From a virus (Duplodnaviria > Heunggongvirae > Uroviricota > Caudoviricetes), in the IMG/VR virus record IMGVR_UViG_2718218129_000002: DNA of 52,782 nt; one strand, given 5' to 3'. The notes beneath the pieces are model-generated. The model saw only the letters and a list, made by a program, of their open reading frames with translations, was not told the DNA's origin and did no database searches. Position numbers and translations under genes: made by a program. Position 1 is the stretch's first letter. Each line of letters starts with the position of its first letter. Below are positions 1,239 to 51,251 of this stretch, piece after piece.

Positions 1239-1814
1239 CTACGGCAGTGCTGGCCATTCAATATCCTGTGCAGTTGACGTATCAACACGGTTCAGCAATA
1301 CCCGATACTTTTTCCATGCTTCCAGCAACGAGATTTCTTCCTCCGTTGCAATTTCCAGATCTGCAGCATCCTGAAGCGGCGCAATATGCTCACTGGCTAC
1401 CTGCATCAGGTTGTTTTTTGTTTCTTCCGCCTCCCGGATCCGGAACAGTTTTTCTGCTTCCGTATCCTTCACCCAGGCTGTGCCGTTCCACTTCTGAAAC
1501 TCCCCTTCCGGCGATAACCAGGTAACATTTTCCGGTAACGGACCGAGTTCAGAAATAAATAACGCGTTGCCGGAAGCCACGTCATAAACCGTTTTACCCC
1601 GATGATCTTCAACGAGATGCCACGATGACTCATCACTGTTGAAAACAGCCACGAAGCCAGCCGGAATATCTGGCGGTGCAATATCGGTACTGTTTGCTGG
1701 CAGACCTGTATGAGGCGGAATATATGCATCACCTTCACCAATAAATTCATTAGTTCCGGCCAGCAGATTATAAATTTTTATGGTCCGTGGTTGTTCACTC
1801 ATTCTGAATGCCAT
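1239..1814 (-). CDS. tfaR: tail fibre assembly protein Tfa
   Basis: 191 aa ORF immediately downstream of stf with stop/start overlap; lambda Tfa-like position and size. Confidence 0.85.
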
Positions 1815-31710: not shown

Positions 31711-32647
31711 TTTTCCTCACATATGTCATATAGTAAAGGATTATATATACCGTTGTTTTGGACGCTCAAACAGCGAATCAGATCAAATAAAACGCACATT
31801 TGTTAACATTTACACAAAGTCTGCGTGGGATATTCTGAAAGAATATCCATAATGTGGAGAGAATCTATTGAAGTGCATGGTGCCGGGTGCCTCCCGGTGA
31901 ACAAAATGTTCGTGATACCTGTCGGCGACAGAAAAGGTTAATGGTATCACCCCACCGCACAGGGGGATTCACCATGCAGGAGTTTTCTTAGCAAACTCAC
32001 TGCGCGCCCGGCAACTCCCAACCACATAAAATGCGGAGTTTGTGGTATTTATGCATATAACTCGCAGGAATTATCTTAAAAAACTGATGTCGATCCGGAT
32101 TAAAAAGAAGCAGGTCATCATCAGATGACTGGAAAAAAGGAAAACAAAAAATACTCATCATACAGTTTTGATTGCAGGGATGAGCCTGCTATGCACAATA
32201 TGCAGAATATAAGCAAGATAAAAATATGCAGGCATATTATTTCGGATTTTGTTATTAACACAACCTTTTTAATAATCATTTGGCATACAATAAACCAGCC
32301 CAAAAAGAACCGCCTAAACAGGCGGTTGGTCAATACAAAGGATGCTTCGTCTTTATTATAGTAATCTGAGGCGTCGGGTGTCTTGTATCAGACAACATAT
32401 TGTCCCGCTAAACAGCGAATTACAAACCACCCTGCAATGATCTCTCATCTCATTTTATATGAGTTGACGACATCAGGATAACGCATCATCAGCCCCTGCC
32501 AAGAAATATCAAAACTCCCGCCAGCAATGTGTTATCACAATATTGTAAAAAAAACACAGCACCGAAACTATAACTGGTCTCTGTTATAATTTGGAGCAGA
32601 AAGACCAGTTGCCCAACTAGCAGCATTCTCCCCTGCTTTCCTGACGT

Positions 32648-34611: not shown

Positions 34612-34860
34612 TCAGAGGTTGCGGGGATTTCTCCCCGCTGGTCCTCTTACTCCCCAAGTTCGTAAGCTGTGAAGACAGCGACCTCCGTCTGGTCGGTTCG
34701 GATTCGTACCTCGCAGAGGTCTTTCCTCGTTACCAGTACCGTCACTATAACGGTTAAACAGATGACGATCAGGGTGATTAACATCGCCTTTTGCTGCTTC
34801 ATAGCCTGCTTCTCCTTGACCTTTTGGTCGGTAAGAGGCTAATCTACGTATGCAAAGCAT
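34612..34860 (-). CDS. mok-like overlapping reading frame
   Basis: 82 aa frame covering hok, as mok overlaps hok in characterised hok/sok loci. Confidence 0.4.
   Translation of the reverse strand: MLCIRRLASYRPKGQGEAGYEAAKGDVNHPDRHLFNRYSDGTGNEERPLRGTNPNRPDGGRCLHSLRTWGVRGPAGRNPRNL
34621..34638 (-). terminator. hok mRNA 3' hairpin
   Basis: GCGGGGA-ttt-CTCCCCGC perfect hairpin just after the hok stop; no clear U-run. Confidence 0.4.
34647..34802 (-). CDS. hok: Hok/Gef-family type I toxin
   Basis: Hand translation MKQQKAMLITLIVICLTVIVTVLVTRKDLCEVRIRTDQTEVAVFTAYELGE; Hok-like transmembrane toxin, 51 aa. Confidence 0.8.
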   Translation of the reverse strand: MKQQKAMLITLIVICLTVIVTVLVTRKDLCEVRIRTDQTEVAVFTAYELGE

Positions 34861-34925
34861 AGATGTGGCCTCAGATTAATGTTAAGCGTCTTGCCGGACG
34901 CGTAATGTTAACTGGGGCTTTTCTC
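34850..34925 (+). ncRNA. Sok-like antisense RNA (approximate position)
   Basis: TTGACC -35 and TAATCT -10 candidates on the plus strand opposite the mok start; boundaries not determined. Confidence 0.3.
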
Positions 34926-35298
34926 TATCTGCCTTTGGTGTTCATGCCCGAGGCAGACAGCCTCAAGCACCCGCAGCTATTCTACTTAACTCCCGTTACC
35001 TCGCCAATATGAAATCAATCAGAAAGGTGATCCATAAGAGCAATAGCAAGACCATAGATTGCCATTACAGCCGCTATAGTTTCTCTGATTTATTCTGTGG
35101 AAATGGGACACAACACCCCGTCACCACCACCACTTCCTTAAATGCGCTAAGTCAGTCACAAGCCAACACTTTAGTCCGCTTTGAGCGAAAAGCTGACAGG
35201 AGTTTAAATAATCAGTTAAGGCATTACAAAAAGCATGTGCTAATAGAGATAACCAGAGTCAATATATAATCTCTTAGCTCTATTTACACTTACGTACA

Positions 35299-36003
35299 TT
35301 ATTCTTGCTTTTTGGGAGGTCTTGGATATTTCGCAGGTAATTTTTCTGTAATCTTAAATATATCCTCATTTTTTAGTATTGTTCGCATTACAAAATTTTC
35401 TATAATTACCAAAAGCGATTTAAATTCAGTTTCGTTCGGTGCCCATGTCCTGTGTGCAGCTGAGTTGCCAGCTTCGGTTACAATTTTAAGTTGGCTCCTT
35501 TCTGTTTCCCCAATAAAACCTTCCTCTTTAAGAATGTCAACCTTCTGGCCTAATGTATATCCTGGATGAATATTTAGAACCTCAACTGTTCTGTCAAAAA
35601 TAGTTCTAAGTCCAATCGCCGCTAAAATGAATGATTTATTTTGAAATGCGATGTACATTTCGTTCATTATTACATACAGCTGACGATCTTTGTTTAATAT
35701 CTCACCAAACCAAGTTGGTCTAATCTCTTCTTGCTCTTGAGTGGGATATGTTGATATATGATAGTTATATACCATACAATCATAGCCTGACTCATCTCTT
35801 TCAATGTCGTAATCTTCACTGTGACGGGATTTAATATATGTAAATATTCCGTCGCACCCCATACACTCTAATAATTTGTATTCACTTTCAGCCCAAAAAT
35901 AGTTGCCCCCATCATCCTCACTCCATTCTCTTTTTTTATGGCCTATTATGTGGCAATTTTTTTCACCTTTACAATATGGACAAGGAGCTTTAATTTTTTC
36001 CAT
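35299..36003 (-). CDS. zinc-ribbon protein with HEPN-like (DUF4145-like) C-terminal domain, candidate defence protein
   Basis: 234 aa; CPYC...CMGC zinc ribbon; C-terminal helical domain with GNSAAHRTW; AT-rich gene; the domain family is uncertain. Confidence 0.55.
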   Translation of the reverse strand: MEKIKAPCPYCKGEKNCHIIGHKKREWSEDDGGNYFWAESEYKLLECMGCDGIFTYIKSRHSEDYDIERDESGYDCMVYNYHISTYPTQEQEEIRPTWFGEILNKDRQLYVIMNEMYIAFQNKSFILAAIGLRTIFDRTVEVLNIHPGYTLGQKVDILKEEGFIGETERSQLKIVTEAGNSAAHRTWAPNETEFKSLLVIIENFVMRTILKNEDIFKITEKLPAKYPRPPKKQE

Positions 36004-36717
36004 GGTAATTATTCTGCCATTTAAATTAAAATTGATATAACATATATGCTATATGATTTATAAATGATGAACTTACGGCTCACTTTACTACAATAATTTT
36101 CATATGAGTAGTGATATGCCTCTCATTTTCTTTGTCGTTGATTGATCTGCTCTACATTGATTAACACCGAATGGGAGTAACTCCCGCTTTTGGCAGAGTG
36201 CGAACAAGCTGACCAAACCTTAGGTCCGCAGTGAGCGAGGAGCGAGCATTGGCCTTATAAGGCATCGGAGCTGTTCTCCGGAGATCCTCTGAAAGCGAAC
36301 TGTTCGGTTAAGCAGGACGCTTACAAGGCAAGCTTAGCGTGTTGTCTTGTGATGGGTTGCTTAAACCTTTTGTGAAGGTATTTTTCTATCGAAAGATAAT
36401 TAACTGAGGTTGTTATGTCATACATTCGCGTCGAGAAAGATGACCTTCAGCATTAATCAGATTATTTCTGTGAAGAGGATATGGTTACAGTCTGTAGAAC
36501 TTAGGGGATTGTAGTCCAGTGTGGTTGTTAATGAGATGGCAGAAGTAGCTGCTGTTCGTACTGCGTTGCGAAATCTCATTAGAGAAAATCGGGTTGATCC
36601 TCTAACTGATTGAATATACATTCCTATTGCTCACGAGTTGGAATGAGCTGTGACTTTTTAGCTTTAAACTTAACTTTAAGACAATTTTATGATCACGTTA
36701 GGGTGTAAGAAGGATAT

Positions 36718-37944
36718 ATGAGCGGAGAAGTATTTCATAAAAGATTGTTTCCCGTTGGCCAGGGTGGATTTAGTTTAGGCGGACTGAGGGGAAGGGATGG
36801 TAGTTTGCTTTACAGTTATGTGTATGACTGCGGAAGTGACCAATTAAATGCGTTGCGTAGGGAGATGGATGTGGCTAAATCTCTCTTTAATATTGATGAG
36901 AAATATATTGATGTGGTATACATCTCTCATTTGGATTCAGACCATATAAATGGATTTGACCATTTATGTCAGCTTGTAGATAACAAAATACGCAAGGTTG
37001 TATTACCATACCTAGATATCCATGATAGCTATTACTTAATTGCATCGGAGCTATGCTCTAATTCTACGTCAGGTCTTTTTATGGAATTTCTCATTGATCC
37101 TGTCAAATGGATAAAATCAAGGTTGCCTGAGGCAGATATATCTTTGCTTTACCCCAGTGATATTGATGATAATTTTGACCCTCCTATATTTAATAGTGAA
37201 AACATTAAGGGTAGCGCTGTAAGCTTACCAATGAAAATATCTGACTCCAAAGGAGATGTTGAATGTAACCGTTGGTTGGTTAAAAGGATTGGGGAAAACA
37301 AAACTGATACACTAATGTCATTTATTTCTTGGATACCGCCCCGTTCACGTAAGAAAATTGAAATTTTCAGTCAGCAGTTAATAGAAAATGGTTTTACTGA
37401 GTTAAGTAAGAAAAAAATGCTTAAAATATTAACTAGCACGGGGGAAAGAAAGAAATTACGCGAGTGTTATTTAAAACTTGCTGGCGATCATAATGTAATA
37501 TCAATCAATCTCTTGATTATTAATAATCAAGAAGCTGAGATGAAAATTGTTAATGAGCCTTCTCGTGAGTGGTTTAGTTTTAGAAATAGTCGGGTTGAGC
37601 GACATTTTCTCTTTGATAGAGATAAAGGAATTAGATCTGTTTTATTAACAGGTGACTCAAAGCTTAATACATCATTGTATTATAATAAATGGGCTGAATT
37701 CTATTCAAAAGTGATTAAAACGGTAAGGGTGATGACATTACCTCATCATGGTTCGGAATTAAATTTCAATCAAAAAATAATTGCGGATTTTGATAATGTT
37801 TTGTTTATAGCTCAGTCGGATGGTCATTCACATGGACACCCATCACAATCAGTAATCGATGCTATAAATTCAAGTCATGGACATAGCGTTACTTTAGTTG
37901 ACAATAATGCTAAAAATTGGGTTGATATAAAATATATATTTTAA
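36718..37944 (+). CDS. metallo-beta-lactamase-fold protein
   Basis: 408 aa; ISHLDSDHINGF resembles the MBL HxHxDH motif; C-terminal LPHHGS as in ComEC-type MBL domains; AT-rich. Confidence 0.65.
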   Translation: MSGEVFHKRLFPVGQGGFSLGGLRGRDGSLLYSYVYDCGSDQLNALRREMDVAKSLFNIDEKYIDVVYISHLDSDHINGFDHLCQLVDNKIRKVVLPYLDIHDSYYLIASELCSNSTSGLFMEFLIDPVKWIKSRLPEADISLLYPSDIDDNFDPPIFNSENIKGSAVSLPMKISDSKGDVECNRWLVKRIGENKTDTLMSFISWIPPRSRKKIEIFSQQLIENGFTELSKKKMLKILTSTGERKKLRECYLKLAGDHNVISINLLIINNQEAEMKIVNEPSREWFSFRNSRVERHFLFDRDKGIRSVLLTGDSKLNTSLYYNKWAEFYSKVIKTVRVMTLPHHGSELNFNQKIIADFDNVLFIAQSDGHSHGHPSQSVIDAINSSHGHSVTLVDNNAKNWVDIKYIF

Positions 37945-38069
37945 ACATTAGTTGTATTAATAGCATTTAAATAAATTAAGTTTGTTGGTATGTTAAAAGT
38001 TTTTGCTAGATAACCAGGTCTTTTTTGACCGATGATACAGTCTTTGTTCCACGGTGACGTGTTCACACT

Positions 38070-38184: not shown

Positions 38185-39078
38185 TTAGTTATCCAAAACA
38201 GCTTTTCTTTGTATTATTGTTCTAATAAATGCTGCTGATATATGCAACACGAATTCAGCATCGTATTCCAAGACAGAAGAAACCTTGTTGCTACCATGTC
38301 TTACTGCTGGCTCTGCATTTGTATAAGCGTAAAATTTCTCTATCACCGTTAAAAGCATAGGTGAGATAGTGTTTTCTTTTCTCATCAGTTTTAATACATC
38401 GCCCAAGGTTGAGGCTGAAGGATAATAAGTCCGACACATGCTTTCTATTGCACTTATTGATTCTTTTATGGAATTTTCTGGATCCTTATGCGCACCTAAT
38501 GCAAAAGCCCGGGCTTTCACATAGTGCCTCCTTGCAGGTTCAAACTGGTCTTGCAATAAGTTGTTAGTTTCATCGATTTTTTGTTCTAATTCATTTGGTA
38601 GTGGTGTTTCTAACCTACCAGCAGAATTCATTTTCCAGTCAATATTTCGAGATGCGAATAACTCGTTCAATTTCTGACGATATGATGTAAAAGTAATGTC
38701 TTCTAATGCCTTCTTACCCCAAGTATGGCCTCTTTCTACATCTCTTTTTCTTAATAGATCTCCGATAATCTCAACAGCATCATAAAATTGAAACCAACGC
38801 ATATGTTGCAAACGCGCTTTCAAAGCATCATAGCAGTACCATGAATCGAAATCCTCATGATCTGTTTCTTGACCATTCTCTGCGCAAAGTCGCTCGATCA
38901 AAGCCTTAATACCCAACGGCTTGTTCTCATCATTCGTAATGCGGCTATCACCATCAATGTACAAAAAATTATCGAGGACAGTTACAAAAAATAAAGAGCG
39001 AAGCCACTCTGGAGCATCTTCCCGTATCGGCTTTTTATTATACTCAGGATCAAAACCATGTCTGTACGAGAACTTCAT
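38185..39078 (-). CDS. hypothetical protein, candidate defence-associated
   Basis: 297 aa from MKFSYRHGFDPEYNKK... with GGGAG Shine-Dalgarno; AT-rich; no motif recognised with confidence. Confidence 0.55.
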   Translation of the reverse strand: MKFSYRHGFDPEYNKKPIREDAPEWLRSLFFVTVLDNFLYIDGDSRITNDENKPLGIKALIERLCAENGQETDHEDFDSWYCYDALKARLQHMRWFQFYDAVEIIGDLLRKRDVERGHTWGKKALEDITFTSYRQKLNELFASRNIDWKMNSAGRLETPLPNELEQKIDETNNLLQDQFEPARRHYVKARAFALGAHKDPENSIKESISAIESMCRTYYPSASTLGDVLKLMRKENTISPMLLTVIEKFYAYTNAEPAVRHGSNKVSSVLEYDAEFVLHISAAFIRTIIQRKAVLDN

Positions 39079-39488
39079 CCCACATCTCCCATTCAACTGT
39101 ATGAATATTAGGTAATTATACAACCAACACAAATCCCTTTGCGAATACAAAAAAATCAAAAAATCACAACAAATTTAAGAACTGATCGCTTATTTCTCTA
39201 TGGATGTCCGCTTCTGGCACGAAGCGGACAAGTTACCGTAGCTGAAGGTCACTAATACTGGGGGCAGGTCAGTTCGCGTTTGTTCTCATAACGGAGTAAG
39301 ACGCTAATGGTATTAAGGTGTATTAATGATCAATGTAGATCAACGATTATTGGCGTTTAACGCTCAGATGAGAACGTTCACCGATTCTGCACGAACAAAT
39401 TCAGAATGGGGGGATTTGATATCCCCCTGGTAGATGCCTTGGTTAATGTTTATAGGTCAATTGAACTCAGAGCATCATTCTTGCCGCA

Positions 39489-40850
39489 TTAGAGATGGTC
39501 AAAAATAGACCCTTTGCGTGGAATAAGGATCTTCTCATAAAGCTTTGTTGCATAGTCATCAGTCATCCCTGAAACATAGTCGCAAATGACTCGCATACCA
39601 GCCTTCTCGTCCAAGCTAGTCTGCCGCTCGTAAATTTCCCTCGTTGATGCCGGTAGAAACCGACACGGATCGTTAGCCAGCACACCGAAAAGCTCAACAA
39701 TCAACTTTTGTCCCTTGAATTCAAGCTGCTGTACATTTTCATGCTTAATTACTTTATTTTTGACCAGTTTGAAAATTTTCAACCGTAGTGCTTCGACCGC
39801 TTCCGGAAGGACCGCATTATATTTGAGCATGCCACATTCGAATGCTGGATTCTTTGTAATAAGCTCAACGCTTGTAATCATCAGGTGAACCAGCATCCCG
39901 ATGCACTCTTTTCTCTTGTAACTTTCACCAAAAAGGCTATCCGCGACAGATTCACATGTTGCGGAAAATGTTTCTCCATGGCAGTTAGTAAATAGGGTTT
40001 CATATTCACTGAAATGCTCCATCCACATTTCTCGTGTCACCATTCCGAGAGAAATAGCATCCTCCAAATCGTGCAGCGAATACGAAATTTCATCGGCAAG
40101 ATCCATGATGGTTGTATCGAGAGCTTTATAAGAAGCTTTTTTATGATCGGATTTAGTTTGACCATCTTCAACGGAAGTAAAAAGCCTCCGATCCTGTTCA
40201 GTAAATGGTGAAAGAGCAAATTCTACAACATCGCATTCTGAATCTAGATAGCATTTTGGAGGTTTAAAATCAGATGACTTAAAGAGCCAGTTCGGCGATC
40301 CGATAGTGGCCGGGATTCTGTCTTTTGTAACCACTAGATCCGAGTATTTAACCGGATATTTCAGTATGCCTAGCAGAAGTCTGCGTGTAGGATCGAGTCC
40401 GTGTTCAACGGTATACTTATCTAGTTTCGAGAGAATGCGAAGTGTCTGACCGTTTCCTTCAAAACCACCGTAATCCTGCATACAGTAGTTAAGAGCTACC
40501 TCACCGCCGTGACCAAATGGAGGATGTCCAATATCATGTGCGAGACATACTGCCTGCATAAGATCGTTATCTGGTAAAAATTGCTCTTGCTCTTTACCTT
40601 TATATTTTATTTTCAGCTTAGCAAGAAGACCTGAACCGATTTGTGCGACTTCCATAGAATGAGTCAGTCGTGTGCGGTAGAAATCACTTTCACCCAGACC
40701 AAGAACCTGTGTTTTGGATTGCAATCGTCTGAAAGCAGACGAGTGAATCAGTCGAGAAAGGTCGTGCTGAGCTTCAGATCGAATCTCCTCCACACGATGA
40801 CTATTGGTGCCTCGTCTCTTATCCCAGACGTTTATTTCACTCCGAGTCAT
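39489..40850 (-). CDS. dGTP triphosphohydrolase (HD domain, Dgt family), likely anti-phage dGTPase
   Basis: RTRLTHSMEVAQIG and HDIGHPPFGHGGE HD-domain motifs; start set at MTRSEINVW by GAGGAA Shine-Dalgarno; about 453 aa. Confidence 0.8.
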   Translation of the reverse strand: MTRSEINVWDKRRGTNSHRVEEIRSEAQHDLSRLIHSSAFRRLQSKTQVLGLGESDFYRTRLTHSMEVAQIGSGLLAKLKIKYKGKEQEQFLPDNDLMQAVCLAHDIGHPPFGHGGEVALNYCMQDYGGFEGNGQTLRILSKLDKYTVEHGLDPTRRLLLGILKYPVKYSDLVVTKDRIPATIGSPNWLFKSSDFKPPKCYLDSECDVVEFALSPFTEQDRRLFTSVEDGQTKSDHKKASYKALDTTIMDLADEISYSLHDLEDAISLGMVTREMWMEHFSEYETLFTNCHGETFSATCESVADSLFGESYKRKECIGMLVHLMITSVELITKNPAFECGMLKYNAVLPEAVEALRLKIFKLVKNKVIKHENVQQLEFKGQKLIVELFGVLANDPCRFLPASTREIYERQTSLDEKAGMRVICDYVSGMTDDYATKLYEKILIPRKGSIFDHL

Positions 40851-41059
40851 ATTATTCCTCATTTTTACTTTGTACACTGCGGCATTCTAACGTAACTAAA
40901 TTATCAAAATAACCTATTTATTTCTGACCTAATCTTCAATAATCAATGTTGTGTGAACTTAGTTAGGCCCGCCCCTGGCACAAAACAGACAACCACGCTA
41001 GCCGTATCCTGTGCCATGAAACTGTCAATTCACATATGAATTAATGGTCTTTAATCTCG

Positions 41060-50854: not shown

Positions 50855-51049
50855 ATGAGATATGACAATGTTAAACCATGTCCATTTTGTGGTTGTCCAT
50901 CAGTAACGGTGAAAGCCATTTCAGGATATTACCGAGCGAAGTGTAACGGATGCGAATCCCGAACCGGTTATGGTGGAAGTGAAAAAGAAGCACTCGAAAG
51001 ATGGAATAAACGAACCACTGGAAATAATAATGGAGGTGTTCATGTGTAA
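50855..51049 (+). CDS. ralR: restriction alleviation protein RalR/Lar
   Basis: 64 aa from MRYDNVKPCPFCGCPSVTVKAISGYYRAKCNGCESRTG...; zinc-ribbon-like Cys pairs. Confidence 0.75.
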   Translation: MRYDNVKPCPFCGCPSVTVKAISGYYRAKCNGCESRTGYGGSEKEALERWNKRTTGNNNGGVHV

Positions 51050-51251
51050 AATTACCGCCACTATTGAAAAGGAAGGTGGCACTCCTACTAACTGGACAAG
51101 ATATTCAAAATCTAAACTAACGAAATCAGAATGCGAAAAAATGCTCTCAGGTAAAAAAGAAGCAGGCGTTTCCAGAGAGCAGAAAGTAAAACTGATAAAT
51201 TTTAATTGCGAGAAACTTCAGTCCTCGAGAATTGCATTGTATTCAAATTAA
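51042..51251 (+). CDS. ydaC: YdaC-like small protein
   Basis: 69 aa from MCKITATIEKEGG...; GGAGGTG Shine-Dalgarno. Confidence 0.55.
   Translation: MCKITATIEKEGGTPTNWTRYSKSKLTKSECEKMLSGKKEAGVSREQKVKLINFNCEKLQSSRIALYSN

Follow-up and report, generated by a model that had tools for sequence, protein, structure and literature searches.

A zinc-domain/HEPN gene of the Escherichia coli Rac prophage as a candidate stand-alone anti-phage defense gene

What does a small gene encoding a four-cysteine domain and a HEPN-like helical domain do in the cargo region of an E. coli prophage, and does it act alone or together with the MBL-fold gene next to it? This question is raised by positions 35299..36003 of the IMG/VR virus record IMGVR_UViG_2718218129_000002, a stretch of 52,782 nucleotides that was analyzed as a whole and is called the window in the following. 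The window was identified as the Rac prophage of E. coli. The gene, here termed the zinc-HEPN gene, is probably a stand-alone, prophage-carried anti-phage defense gene whose product combines a zinc-finger sensor with a HEPN effector, built like RAZR/PD-T7-4; the proposed defense role is drawn by analogy with that system.

The zinc-HEPN gene and its product

On the minus strand, an ATG-to-stop open reading frame (ORF) encoding 234 amino acids occupies exactly 35299..36003, both in the ORF listing and in the sequence. The N-terminus of the product reads MEKIKAPCPYCKGEKNC. The start codon is supported, since 13 homologues begin in register (MEKIKAPCPYC...). Identical copies of the protein are encoded by 624 contigs; the cluster formed at 90% includes sequences from E. 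coli, Enterobacter, Citrobacter and Pectobacterium. Together with the size of the family and the invariant cysteines described below, these identical copies exclude a chance ORF, and the ORF is a real gene. Its parts are as follows.

35299..36003, minus strand: zinc-HEPN coding sequence (CDS), 234 amino acids plus stop (ORF listing, RefSeq, Pfam, phrog_1305)
35746..36003, minus strand: four-cysteine zinc domain, beta-rich, residues 1-86, seven strands, presumed sensor
35971..35982, minus strand: CxxC knuckle 1, C8-P-Y-C11 (translation; invariant in the family)
35854..35865, minus strand: CxxC knuckle 2, C47-M-G-C50 (translation; invariant in the family)
35686..35745, minus strand: linker, residues 87-106, with the near-invariant P87, P96 and W98 (conservation table, secondary structure of the model)
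35374..35685, minus strand: HEPN (DUF4145) helical domain, residues 107-210, presumed RNase effector
35605..35607, minus strand: R133 codon in the helix motif AAIGLRTxFDR (conservation; comparison with the DUF4145 N-terminus of HsdR in locus L059)
35449..35478, minus strand: active-site helix T176-E-A-G-N-S-A-A-H184-R185 (counts in 81 representatives, survey of 165 proteins)

The initial annotation, a reading of the bare sequence, had described two CxxC pairs (CPYC and CMGC) at the N-terminus and a C-terminus resembling DUF4145/HEPN domains. The translation confirmed the pairs, and none of the four cysteines varies among 81 representatives of the family. The C-terminal assignment was borne out by the profile search, in which residues 115-201 matched positions 2-87/88 of the hidden Markov model of Pfam PF13643 (DUF4145) with an E-value of 3.2e-11 and 43.6 bits. 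The score lies above the curated gathering cut-off of 23.1 bits, and the protein is therefore a member of Pfam DUF4145. The two-domain architecture was thus directly observed.

In RefSeq, the identical protein WP_029798703.1 is named 'DUF4145 domain-containing protein'. A full-length match to phrog_1305 was found in PHROGs (E 9.6e-30), which carries only the label 'DNA binding protein'. The protein had no match in NCBIfam and none in PADLOC 2.0 at E<=1. Since neither resource flags the gene, inventories of E. coli prophage defense miss it.

The AlphaFold2 model, built on 14 homologues, has a mean predicted local distance difference test score (pLDDT) of 83, and both domains were modeled confidently. 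The N-terminal domain is beta-rich, its strands lying within residues 3 to 85. The C-terminal domain is composed of helices between residues 107 and 210 and is followed by a disordered basic tail. In the model, the C-terminal domain adopts the all-alpha up-down helical bundle of solved HEPN domains. Among its top structural matches are sacsin and Roquin, both of which are non-catalytic HEPN proteins. For the seven-stranded N-terminal domain, the fold search of Protein Data Bank copies found no solved structural relative; its top matches were weak and belonged to nucleic-acid binders of the Pur-alpha, WGR and Whirly type.

Size and range of the family

A word-indexed search retrieved only 16 close clusters, from Enterobacterales. 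The exhaustive profile search detected 2723 proteins at E<=1e-3; of these, 1441 reach <=1e-10, and 280 clusters reach <=1e-30. Nearly all of them are about 220-260 amino acids in length and align from residue ~3 to residue ~230, and therefore the two-domain protein is the unit of conservation. A search for other DUF4145 families with a profile of the HEPN domain only returned nothing except truncated members of the same family.

The members are distributed over the Gamma-, Beta- and Alphaproteobacteria, with a few in Bacteroidota, Acidobacteriota, Chloroflexota and Cyanobacteria. A homologue was found on 68 plasmids, 51 of them in Yersinia, including the ~100-kb plasmids of Y. pestis. The homologues on the ~99-101-kb Y. 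pestis plasmids and on a plasmid of Y. pseudotuberculosis IP31758 (YpsIP31758_A0010) show 41-43% identity. In the Yersinia version P0016, the arginine after the catalytic-type histidine is replaced by G (THGSW) and the conserved G179 by E (AENAVTH).

In the Sphingomonadales and relatives, members from more than a dozen genera share over 90% identity among themselves (loci L019, L021-L024, L026-L032, L034 and L036). This near-identity at the sequence level points to a recent horizontal spread on one mobile element. In a tblastn search of 50,697 GenBank phage records, no family match was obtained at 1e-5; unlike this phage set, IMG/VR and PHROGs do include the family.

Conserved residues and the missing arginine

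The conservation analysis was based on an alignment of 81 representatives with 24-83% identity to the query. Only C8, C11, C47, C50, R133 and H184 are invariant in all 81. A conservation of at least 90% was determined for P87, P96, W98, G131, D137 (or E), K154, A178, G179, A181-A183, R185, W187, P189 and E202. The signature of the family around H184 is AG[NS]AAAHR[GA]WxP.

The canonical HEPN motif R-x(4-6)-H, which in DUF4145 and RAZR has the form R-x7-H, was not found, since the histidine is kept and the arginine is absent, a feature that the initial annotation had not pointed out. Position 176, eight residues upstream of H184 (H-8), is T in 34, I in 21, V in 19, A in six and L in one of the representatives and never Arg or Lys. 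In a survey of 165 proteins it was likewise never basic, and the 81 representatives have no Arg or Lys 4-8 residues upstream of H184. Directly after the histidine, at position 185, an Arg is found in 75 of the 81 members.

To verify the register, the N-terminal DUF4145 domain of a type I HsdR was used for comparison, whose '...IHKVGNNAVH' pairs with 'vlvdAGnAAaH'. The 'RRGLE' of the first HsdR helix is the counterpart of R133-x3-D137. R133 has its equivalent in the 'R...E' that other DUF4145 domains carry in their first core helix. The H-8 arginine is therefore truly missing, and R133/D137 are common to another DUF4145 domain. The HsdR in question (locus L059, 6666-10046, minus strand) adjoins a family member and carries a DUF4145 domain of its own at the N-terminus. 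Its H-8 position is a His and not an Arg (IHKVGNNAVH), which makes it another DUF4145 domain without the canonical arginine.

Because the H-8 arginine is replaced in all 81 representatives, RNase activity is not assured. A catalytically inactive HEPN domain would leave a protein that acts by binding, for example by sequestering RNA, a nucleotide or a phage protein in superinfection exclusion or regulation. The absence of the canonical arginine in 81 of 81 representatives is in agreement with this explanation, as are the existence of non-catalytic HEPN domains and the presence of sacsin and Roquin among the top structural matches. In addition, the motif is conserved in only about 80% of DUF4145 domains, and a sister family of DUF4145 is listed with a 'conserved H but lacks R' (Anantharaman et al., 2013).

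The pattern of conservation, however, is typical of an active site and not of a degenerate one. H184 is strictly invariant within the conserved AG[NS]AAAHR[GA]W signature. R133 does not vary either, and R185, K154, D137 and E202 are near-invariant. Moreover, the Arg that directly follows the His in 75 of 81 members could replace the missing one. An inactive, binding-only HEPN domain is thus regarded as unlikely, although it is the only one of four rival explanations that carries real weight. With the H-8 arginine missing, a different basic residue would need to take over its role in an active enzyme, and R185 and R133 are the candidates.

A single-gene cassette independent of the MBL-fold gene

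The boundaries of the gene and of its neighbor were determined by blastn against copies in other genomic contexts.

35174..36201, no strand: mobile single-gene cassette, consisting of the CDS, ~200 bp upstream and ~100-125 bp downstream (blastn, contexts)
36718-37944, plus strand, within the cassette 36224-38011: CDS of an MBL-fold protein of 408 amino acids (CDS and homology bounds)

The homology of the window extends over 35174-36195 against locus L004 and over 35202-36201 against locus L005. These copies of the cassette, with an identity of 82-89%, are located in unrelated prophage positions. In E. coli O121, an 82%-identical gene stands alone in a P2-like prophage, flanked by the tail-fibre-assembly and tail-sheath genes, at the Z/fun cargo site of the P2 map. 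A copy with 89-91% identity adjoins pinE at the end of another prophage. The cassette borders were searched for repeats as possible recombination sites, and only short matches at chance level and one AT-rich palindrome in the promoter region were found.

The initial annotation had proposed that the zinc-HEPN gene may regulate the neighboring MBL-fold gene. If so, the two would form one two-gene system with a sensor or regulator and a nuclease effector. The arrangement is consistent with such a system, as the genes are adjacent, divergent and 715 bp apart, and both are present in eight complete E. coli genomes and two IMG/VR contigs. Furthermore, the MBL-fold protein shows weak matches to the MBL components LmuA, RTasMBL, Avs1a and PDC-M48B.

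The comparison with independent copies did not bear this out. An 83%-identical MBL gene was found without the zinc-HEPN gene in the IMG/VR contig L150, between tail-fibre and umuDC-like genes. The homology with this copy starts at position 36224 of the window and ends at 38011, which corresponds to a cassette of ~1.8 kb. Since the homology of the zinc-HEPN gene breaks at 36195-36201 and that of the MBL gene at 36224, the two are separate modules abutting within ~20 bp. Each of them occurs without the other, the zinc-HEPN gene at the two other prophage sites described above. Cases within Rac in which only one of the genes is left are deletions mediated by insertion sequences and are not informative on pairing. 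No MBL homologue was found within 5-6 kb on either side of 78 genomic and 62 viral loci, that is, near ~140 family loci. The pairing was rejected as largely refuted by the comparative data, and a two-gene system is highly improbable.

The survey of neighbors covered 78 loci from other species, of which 64 are distinct at 90% identity. No conserved neighbor was found across the 64 distinct loci, the commonest family occurring in only four of them, which are syntenic Pseudomonas prophages. The orientation of the neighbors was random. Homologues of the MBL, PDC-S32, dGTPase and Hok proteins encoded beside the gene in the window were absent from all 78 loci.

A type I HsdR-type protein was the immediate neighbor in three of the 64 distinct loci, one of the HsdR proteins having the N-terminal DUF4145 domain mentioned above. 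This could indicate an accessory of restriction-modification, as in DUF4145 domains fused to or encoded beside HsdR. The association is limited to about 5% of the loci and was found neither in the window nor in the E. coli or P2-like prophage contexts, which makes this explanation highly improbable.

Among viral sequences, 63 IMG/VR contigs with a family member were identified, which fall into 33 distinct groups. In about 12-15 of these groups, the gene is located between tail-terminator or tail-completion genes and the baseplate genes V/W/J of P2-like prophages. This is the site where P2 carries the non-essential orf30. The viral loci share no conserved neighbor beyond prophage synteny, and the gene, like that of RAZR, has no conserved partner. 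The single-gene cassette, its recurrent location in prophage cargo regions and hot spots and its independence from the MBL gene were observed directly, and that the zinc-HEPN gene is a stand-alone unit is very likely.

The conserved 5' region

The upstream part of the cassette is conserved together with the CDS.

36004..36201, minus strand: conserved 5' region of ~200 bp, presumed promoter or leader (three-way alignment, blastn boundaries, palindrome)

The ~200 bp 5' of the gene are conserved in three unrelated prophage insertion sites with a mean column identity of 74%. Just upstream of the start codon, an AT-rich palindrome with 23-nt arms is located at 36026-36063 and may serve as an operator or promoter. 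The region 36004-36201 presumably carries the promoter or leader of the gene itself. Promoter and terminator scans gave results no better than those of shuffled controls. Rfam detected nothing in the region, and the consensus RNA fold was weak (-14.6 kcal/mol; three pairs with double changes, from three sequences only).

The co-inheritance of this non-coding sequence in three unrelated contexts is also compatible with an addiction module. In that case the protein would be a toxin with a stabilizing effect on the prophage or plasmid. An RNA in the 5' leader or an intramolecular element would serve as the antidote, and phage defense would not be the primary role. HEPN toxins are common in toxin-antitoxin systems (Anantharaman et al., 2013), homologues of the gene are carried on plasmids, and the gene is located beside hok/sok. 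On the other side, no conserved partner ORF was found, and a HEPN-MNT type II toxin-antitoxin system is not present, as no minimal nucleotidyltransferase is adjacent in the window and no neighbor is conserved. The 5' region has only the weak consensus fold and lacks the kind of tandem repeats seen in type III antitoxins, and its conservation is equally expected of a promoter or operator. An addiction module is thus very unlikely.

Comparison with known HEPN defense systems

PD-T7-4 was described as a 'Zn finger-HEPN' single gene with a zinc ribbon at about residues 9-59 and a DUF4145 domain at residues 87-175, as determined by HHpred (Vassallo et al., 2022; PMC9519451). The protein, from E. 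coli UMB1727 (RRL46918.1), was renamed RAZR for ring-activated zinc-finger RNase (Zhang et al., 2026; PMC13017515). Its zinc-finger domain binds rings of phage portal proteins or of the SECphi27 Gp77 protein and not nucleic acid. The suggestion of the initial annotation that the zinc-HEPN protein may sense nucleic acid is thus not supported by the one characterized protein with this architecture. Around the ring 24 copies assemble, and R146 and H154 are required. Activated RAZR cuts single-stranded RNA non-specifically and aborts the infection. Swaps of the zinc domain swap the specificity, and homologues are widespread and variable in the zinc domain (PMC13017515).

The zinc-HEPN protein shares with RAZR the N-terminal four-cysteine zinc domain, the conserved linker, the C-terminal DUF4145/HEPN domain and the catalytic-type histidine. 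Both are single-gene systems of about 220-234 amino acids with a spacing of about 36-40 residues between the cysteine pairs. The architecture of RAZR, a Cys4 zinc domain, a linker and DUF4145 in one protein of ~200-230 amino acids, is therefore found here.

In contrast to RAZR, the N-terminal domain and the linker are ~28 residues longer, DUF4145 starting at residue 115 compared to residue 87 in PD-T7-4, and the N-terminal domain is the seven-stranded sheet without a solved relative. Of the catalytic pair R146 and H154, only the counterpart of the histidine is kept; the position of R146 (H-8) is occupied by T/I/V/A/L, and an Arg follows the His instead. The PADLOC model of PD-T7-4 (PDLC04109) was not matched at E<=1. 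Because this profile is unmatched, the RAZR arginine is missing and the N-terminal part is longer, the protein was not assigned to RAZR. It is a variant of the zinc-finger/HEPN kind, set apart from RAZR by the profile and by the residues and layout described in the publications.

DS-38 is a single E. coli protein with a HEPN domain and a zinc finger, validated as anti-phage (DefensePredictor preprint; 10.1101/2025.01.08.631726). Its superposition on PD-T7-4 is confined to the HEPN domain, the zinc finger being distinct (10.1101/2025.01.08.631726). The combination of a HEPN domain with a zinc finger unlike that of PD-T7-4 resembles the protein studied here, a likeness drawn from the verbal description only, and the zinc-HEPN family may be the same as DS-38.

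HepS of the Salmonella prophage Gifsy-1 (PMC13043305) and Tha of S. aureus prophages (PMC11087260) are single-protein HEPN abortive-infection systems. Both are constitutively expressed and become active when they directly bind a structural (tail) protein of a phage (PMC13043305, PMC11087260). Like these, the zinc-HEPN gene encodes a single protein in a prophage, within the cargo region of temperate phages. Unlike HepS, which consists of a HEPN domain only, with the canonical R100-x4-H105 motif and no zinc domain (PMC13043305), the protein has an additional zinc domain of 86 residues and lacks the canonical Arg, and is thus not a solo HEPN protein of the HepS type. Compared to HepS, sensing would here fall to a distinct domain at the N-terminus.

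DUF4145 was placed in the HEPN superfamily, and fusions with zinc ribbons are already listed (Anantharaman et al., 2013). The DUF4145 HEPN module is also found in a defense context in the N-termini of type I HsdR, in BxaP (PMC10799925), in Ishtar1 (10.64898/2026.07.06.735840) and in PD-T7-3. These differ from the zinc-HEPN protein in their partner domains (helicase/restriction endonuclease, HEAT-like, beta/alpha C-domain) and in the domain order, and the AG[NS]AAAHR[GA]W signature is present in none of them.

Proposed mode of action

By analogy with RAZR, a function in defense, the cleavage of RNA, the sensing of the trigger by the zinc domain and oligomerization are proposed. A role in defense against phages, or against mobile elements, is quite likely. 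It is favored by the conservation of the residues presumed to be functional, by the position in a low-G+C cargo block of Rac beside other defense genes, by the recurrence at cargo sites of P2-like prophages and on plasmids, and by the precedents RAZR and DS-38. The protein is also reasonably likely to be an active RNase, whereas a protein trigger read by the zinc domain is plausible but somewhat doubtful.

In the lysogen, the zinc-HEPN protein would be made constitutively from its own promoter and kept inactive. Upon infection, the four-cysteine beta domain would recognize a component made by the phage, by analogy most likely an oligomeric phage protein. This recognition would re-arrange HEPN dimers or oligomers into a composite active site around the invariant H184, in which R185 or R133 would supply the basic role of the missing H-8 arginine. 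The activated enzyme would then cut cellular and phage RNA, resulting in a stop of translation and abortive infection.

Several observations weigh against a RAZR-like defense protein. In 81 of 81 family members, T/I/V/A/L take the place of R146, which RAZR requires, and Rx4-6H is missing in ~20% of DUF4145 domains (Anantharaman et al., 2013). Only two of the 81 members matched PDLC04109, both marginally (best E 0.021), and the protein of the window did not. In addition, many members from the Alphaproteobacteria lie among ordinary chromosomal genes.

Alternatively, the family could represent a second class of zinc-domain/HEPN sensors, in which the catalytic Arg has moved to the position after the His or is supplied by R133, and in which the enlarged seven-stranded sheet recognizes a kind of trigger that differs from the portal or recombinase rings of RAZR. 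The trigger could then be another phage assembly or, in view of the weak fold matches to nucleic-acid binders, a nucleic acid. This version is regarded as somewhat unlikely. A defense gene of the proposed kind is expected for this location, and the interest lies in the putatively re-wired active site and in the sensor fold, for which no match was found.

The Rac prophage setting

In E. coli strain WGI31CT, the identical locus is flanked by trkG, ydaV, ydaT, sieB, kilR and racC. In the window, RalA and sok were found by Rfam. The hits at the gathering level, which are consistent with the Rac identity, include RalA (the antitoxin small RNA of RalR), IS009 and STnc100.

The zinc-HEPN gene is part of a cargo block with a low G+C content of 30-43%, compared to ~50% in the flanks. 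The block is located between the replication genes and the late-regulation block DUF1367/DUF1364/DUF1133. It contains an anti-phage dGTPase, a PDC-S32 protein with AbiJ_NTD4, the MBL-fold protein, the zinc-HEPN gene and hok/sok, the latter directly downstream of the zinc-HEPN cassette. The further features are listed below.

39489-40877, minus strand: anti-phage dGTPase (NCBIfam NF041026, E 3.9e-168; PADLOC dGTPase, E 8.7e-145)
38185-39159, minus strand: PDC-S32 protein of 324 amino acids (PADLOC PDC-S32, E 5.8e-34; Pfam AbiJ_NTD4)
34647-34972, minus strand: Hok/Gef-family toxin ORF of 51 amino acids and sok antisense RNA (Rfam RF01794, 105 bits)
51048-51226, minus strand: RalA (Rfam, gathering level)
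1273-1471, minus strand: IS009 (Rfam, gathering level)
31821-32007, minus strand: STnc100 (Rfam, gathering level)

The protein encoded at 38185-39159 scored 33.9 bits against Pfam AbiJ_NTD4, just below the cut-off of 34.0. The RefSeq start of this gene lies further downstream, resulting in 297 amino acids compared to the 324 of the ORF. The product is probably another single-gene protein of the Abi type.

The MBL-fold protein had no match in PHROGs. Its matches to MBL components of multi-gene systems are weak and partial (LmuA with E 2.4e-12, RTasMBL, Avs1a, PDC-M48B and 6A-MBL). It looks like a stand-alone candidate defense nuclease that is not yet characterized. The Rac block is thus a mosaic of five defense and addiction modules, namely dGTPase, PDC-S32, MBL, zinc-HEPN and hok/sok.

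Implications

The clean boundaries of the cassettes show that the cargo region of Rac is a mosaic in which single-gene cassettes can be exchanged independently of one another. If the zinc-HEPN family is the same as DS-38, the defense phenotype is already described in the preprint. If the gene is confirmed as a defense gene, a widespread family, with hundreds of 50%-identity clusters in Proteobacteria and other phyla, in prophages and on plasmids, would join the small set of systems that combine a sensor and a HEPN effector in a single protein. With the same effector scaffold, a different sensor and without the arginine essential in RAZR, it would be a natural comparison for that system and could help to tell the general features of scaffold-activated HEPN immunity from the particular ones.

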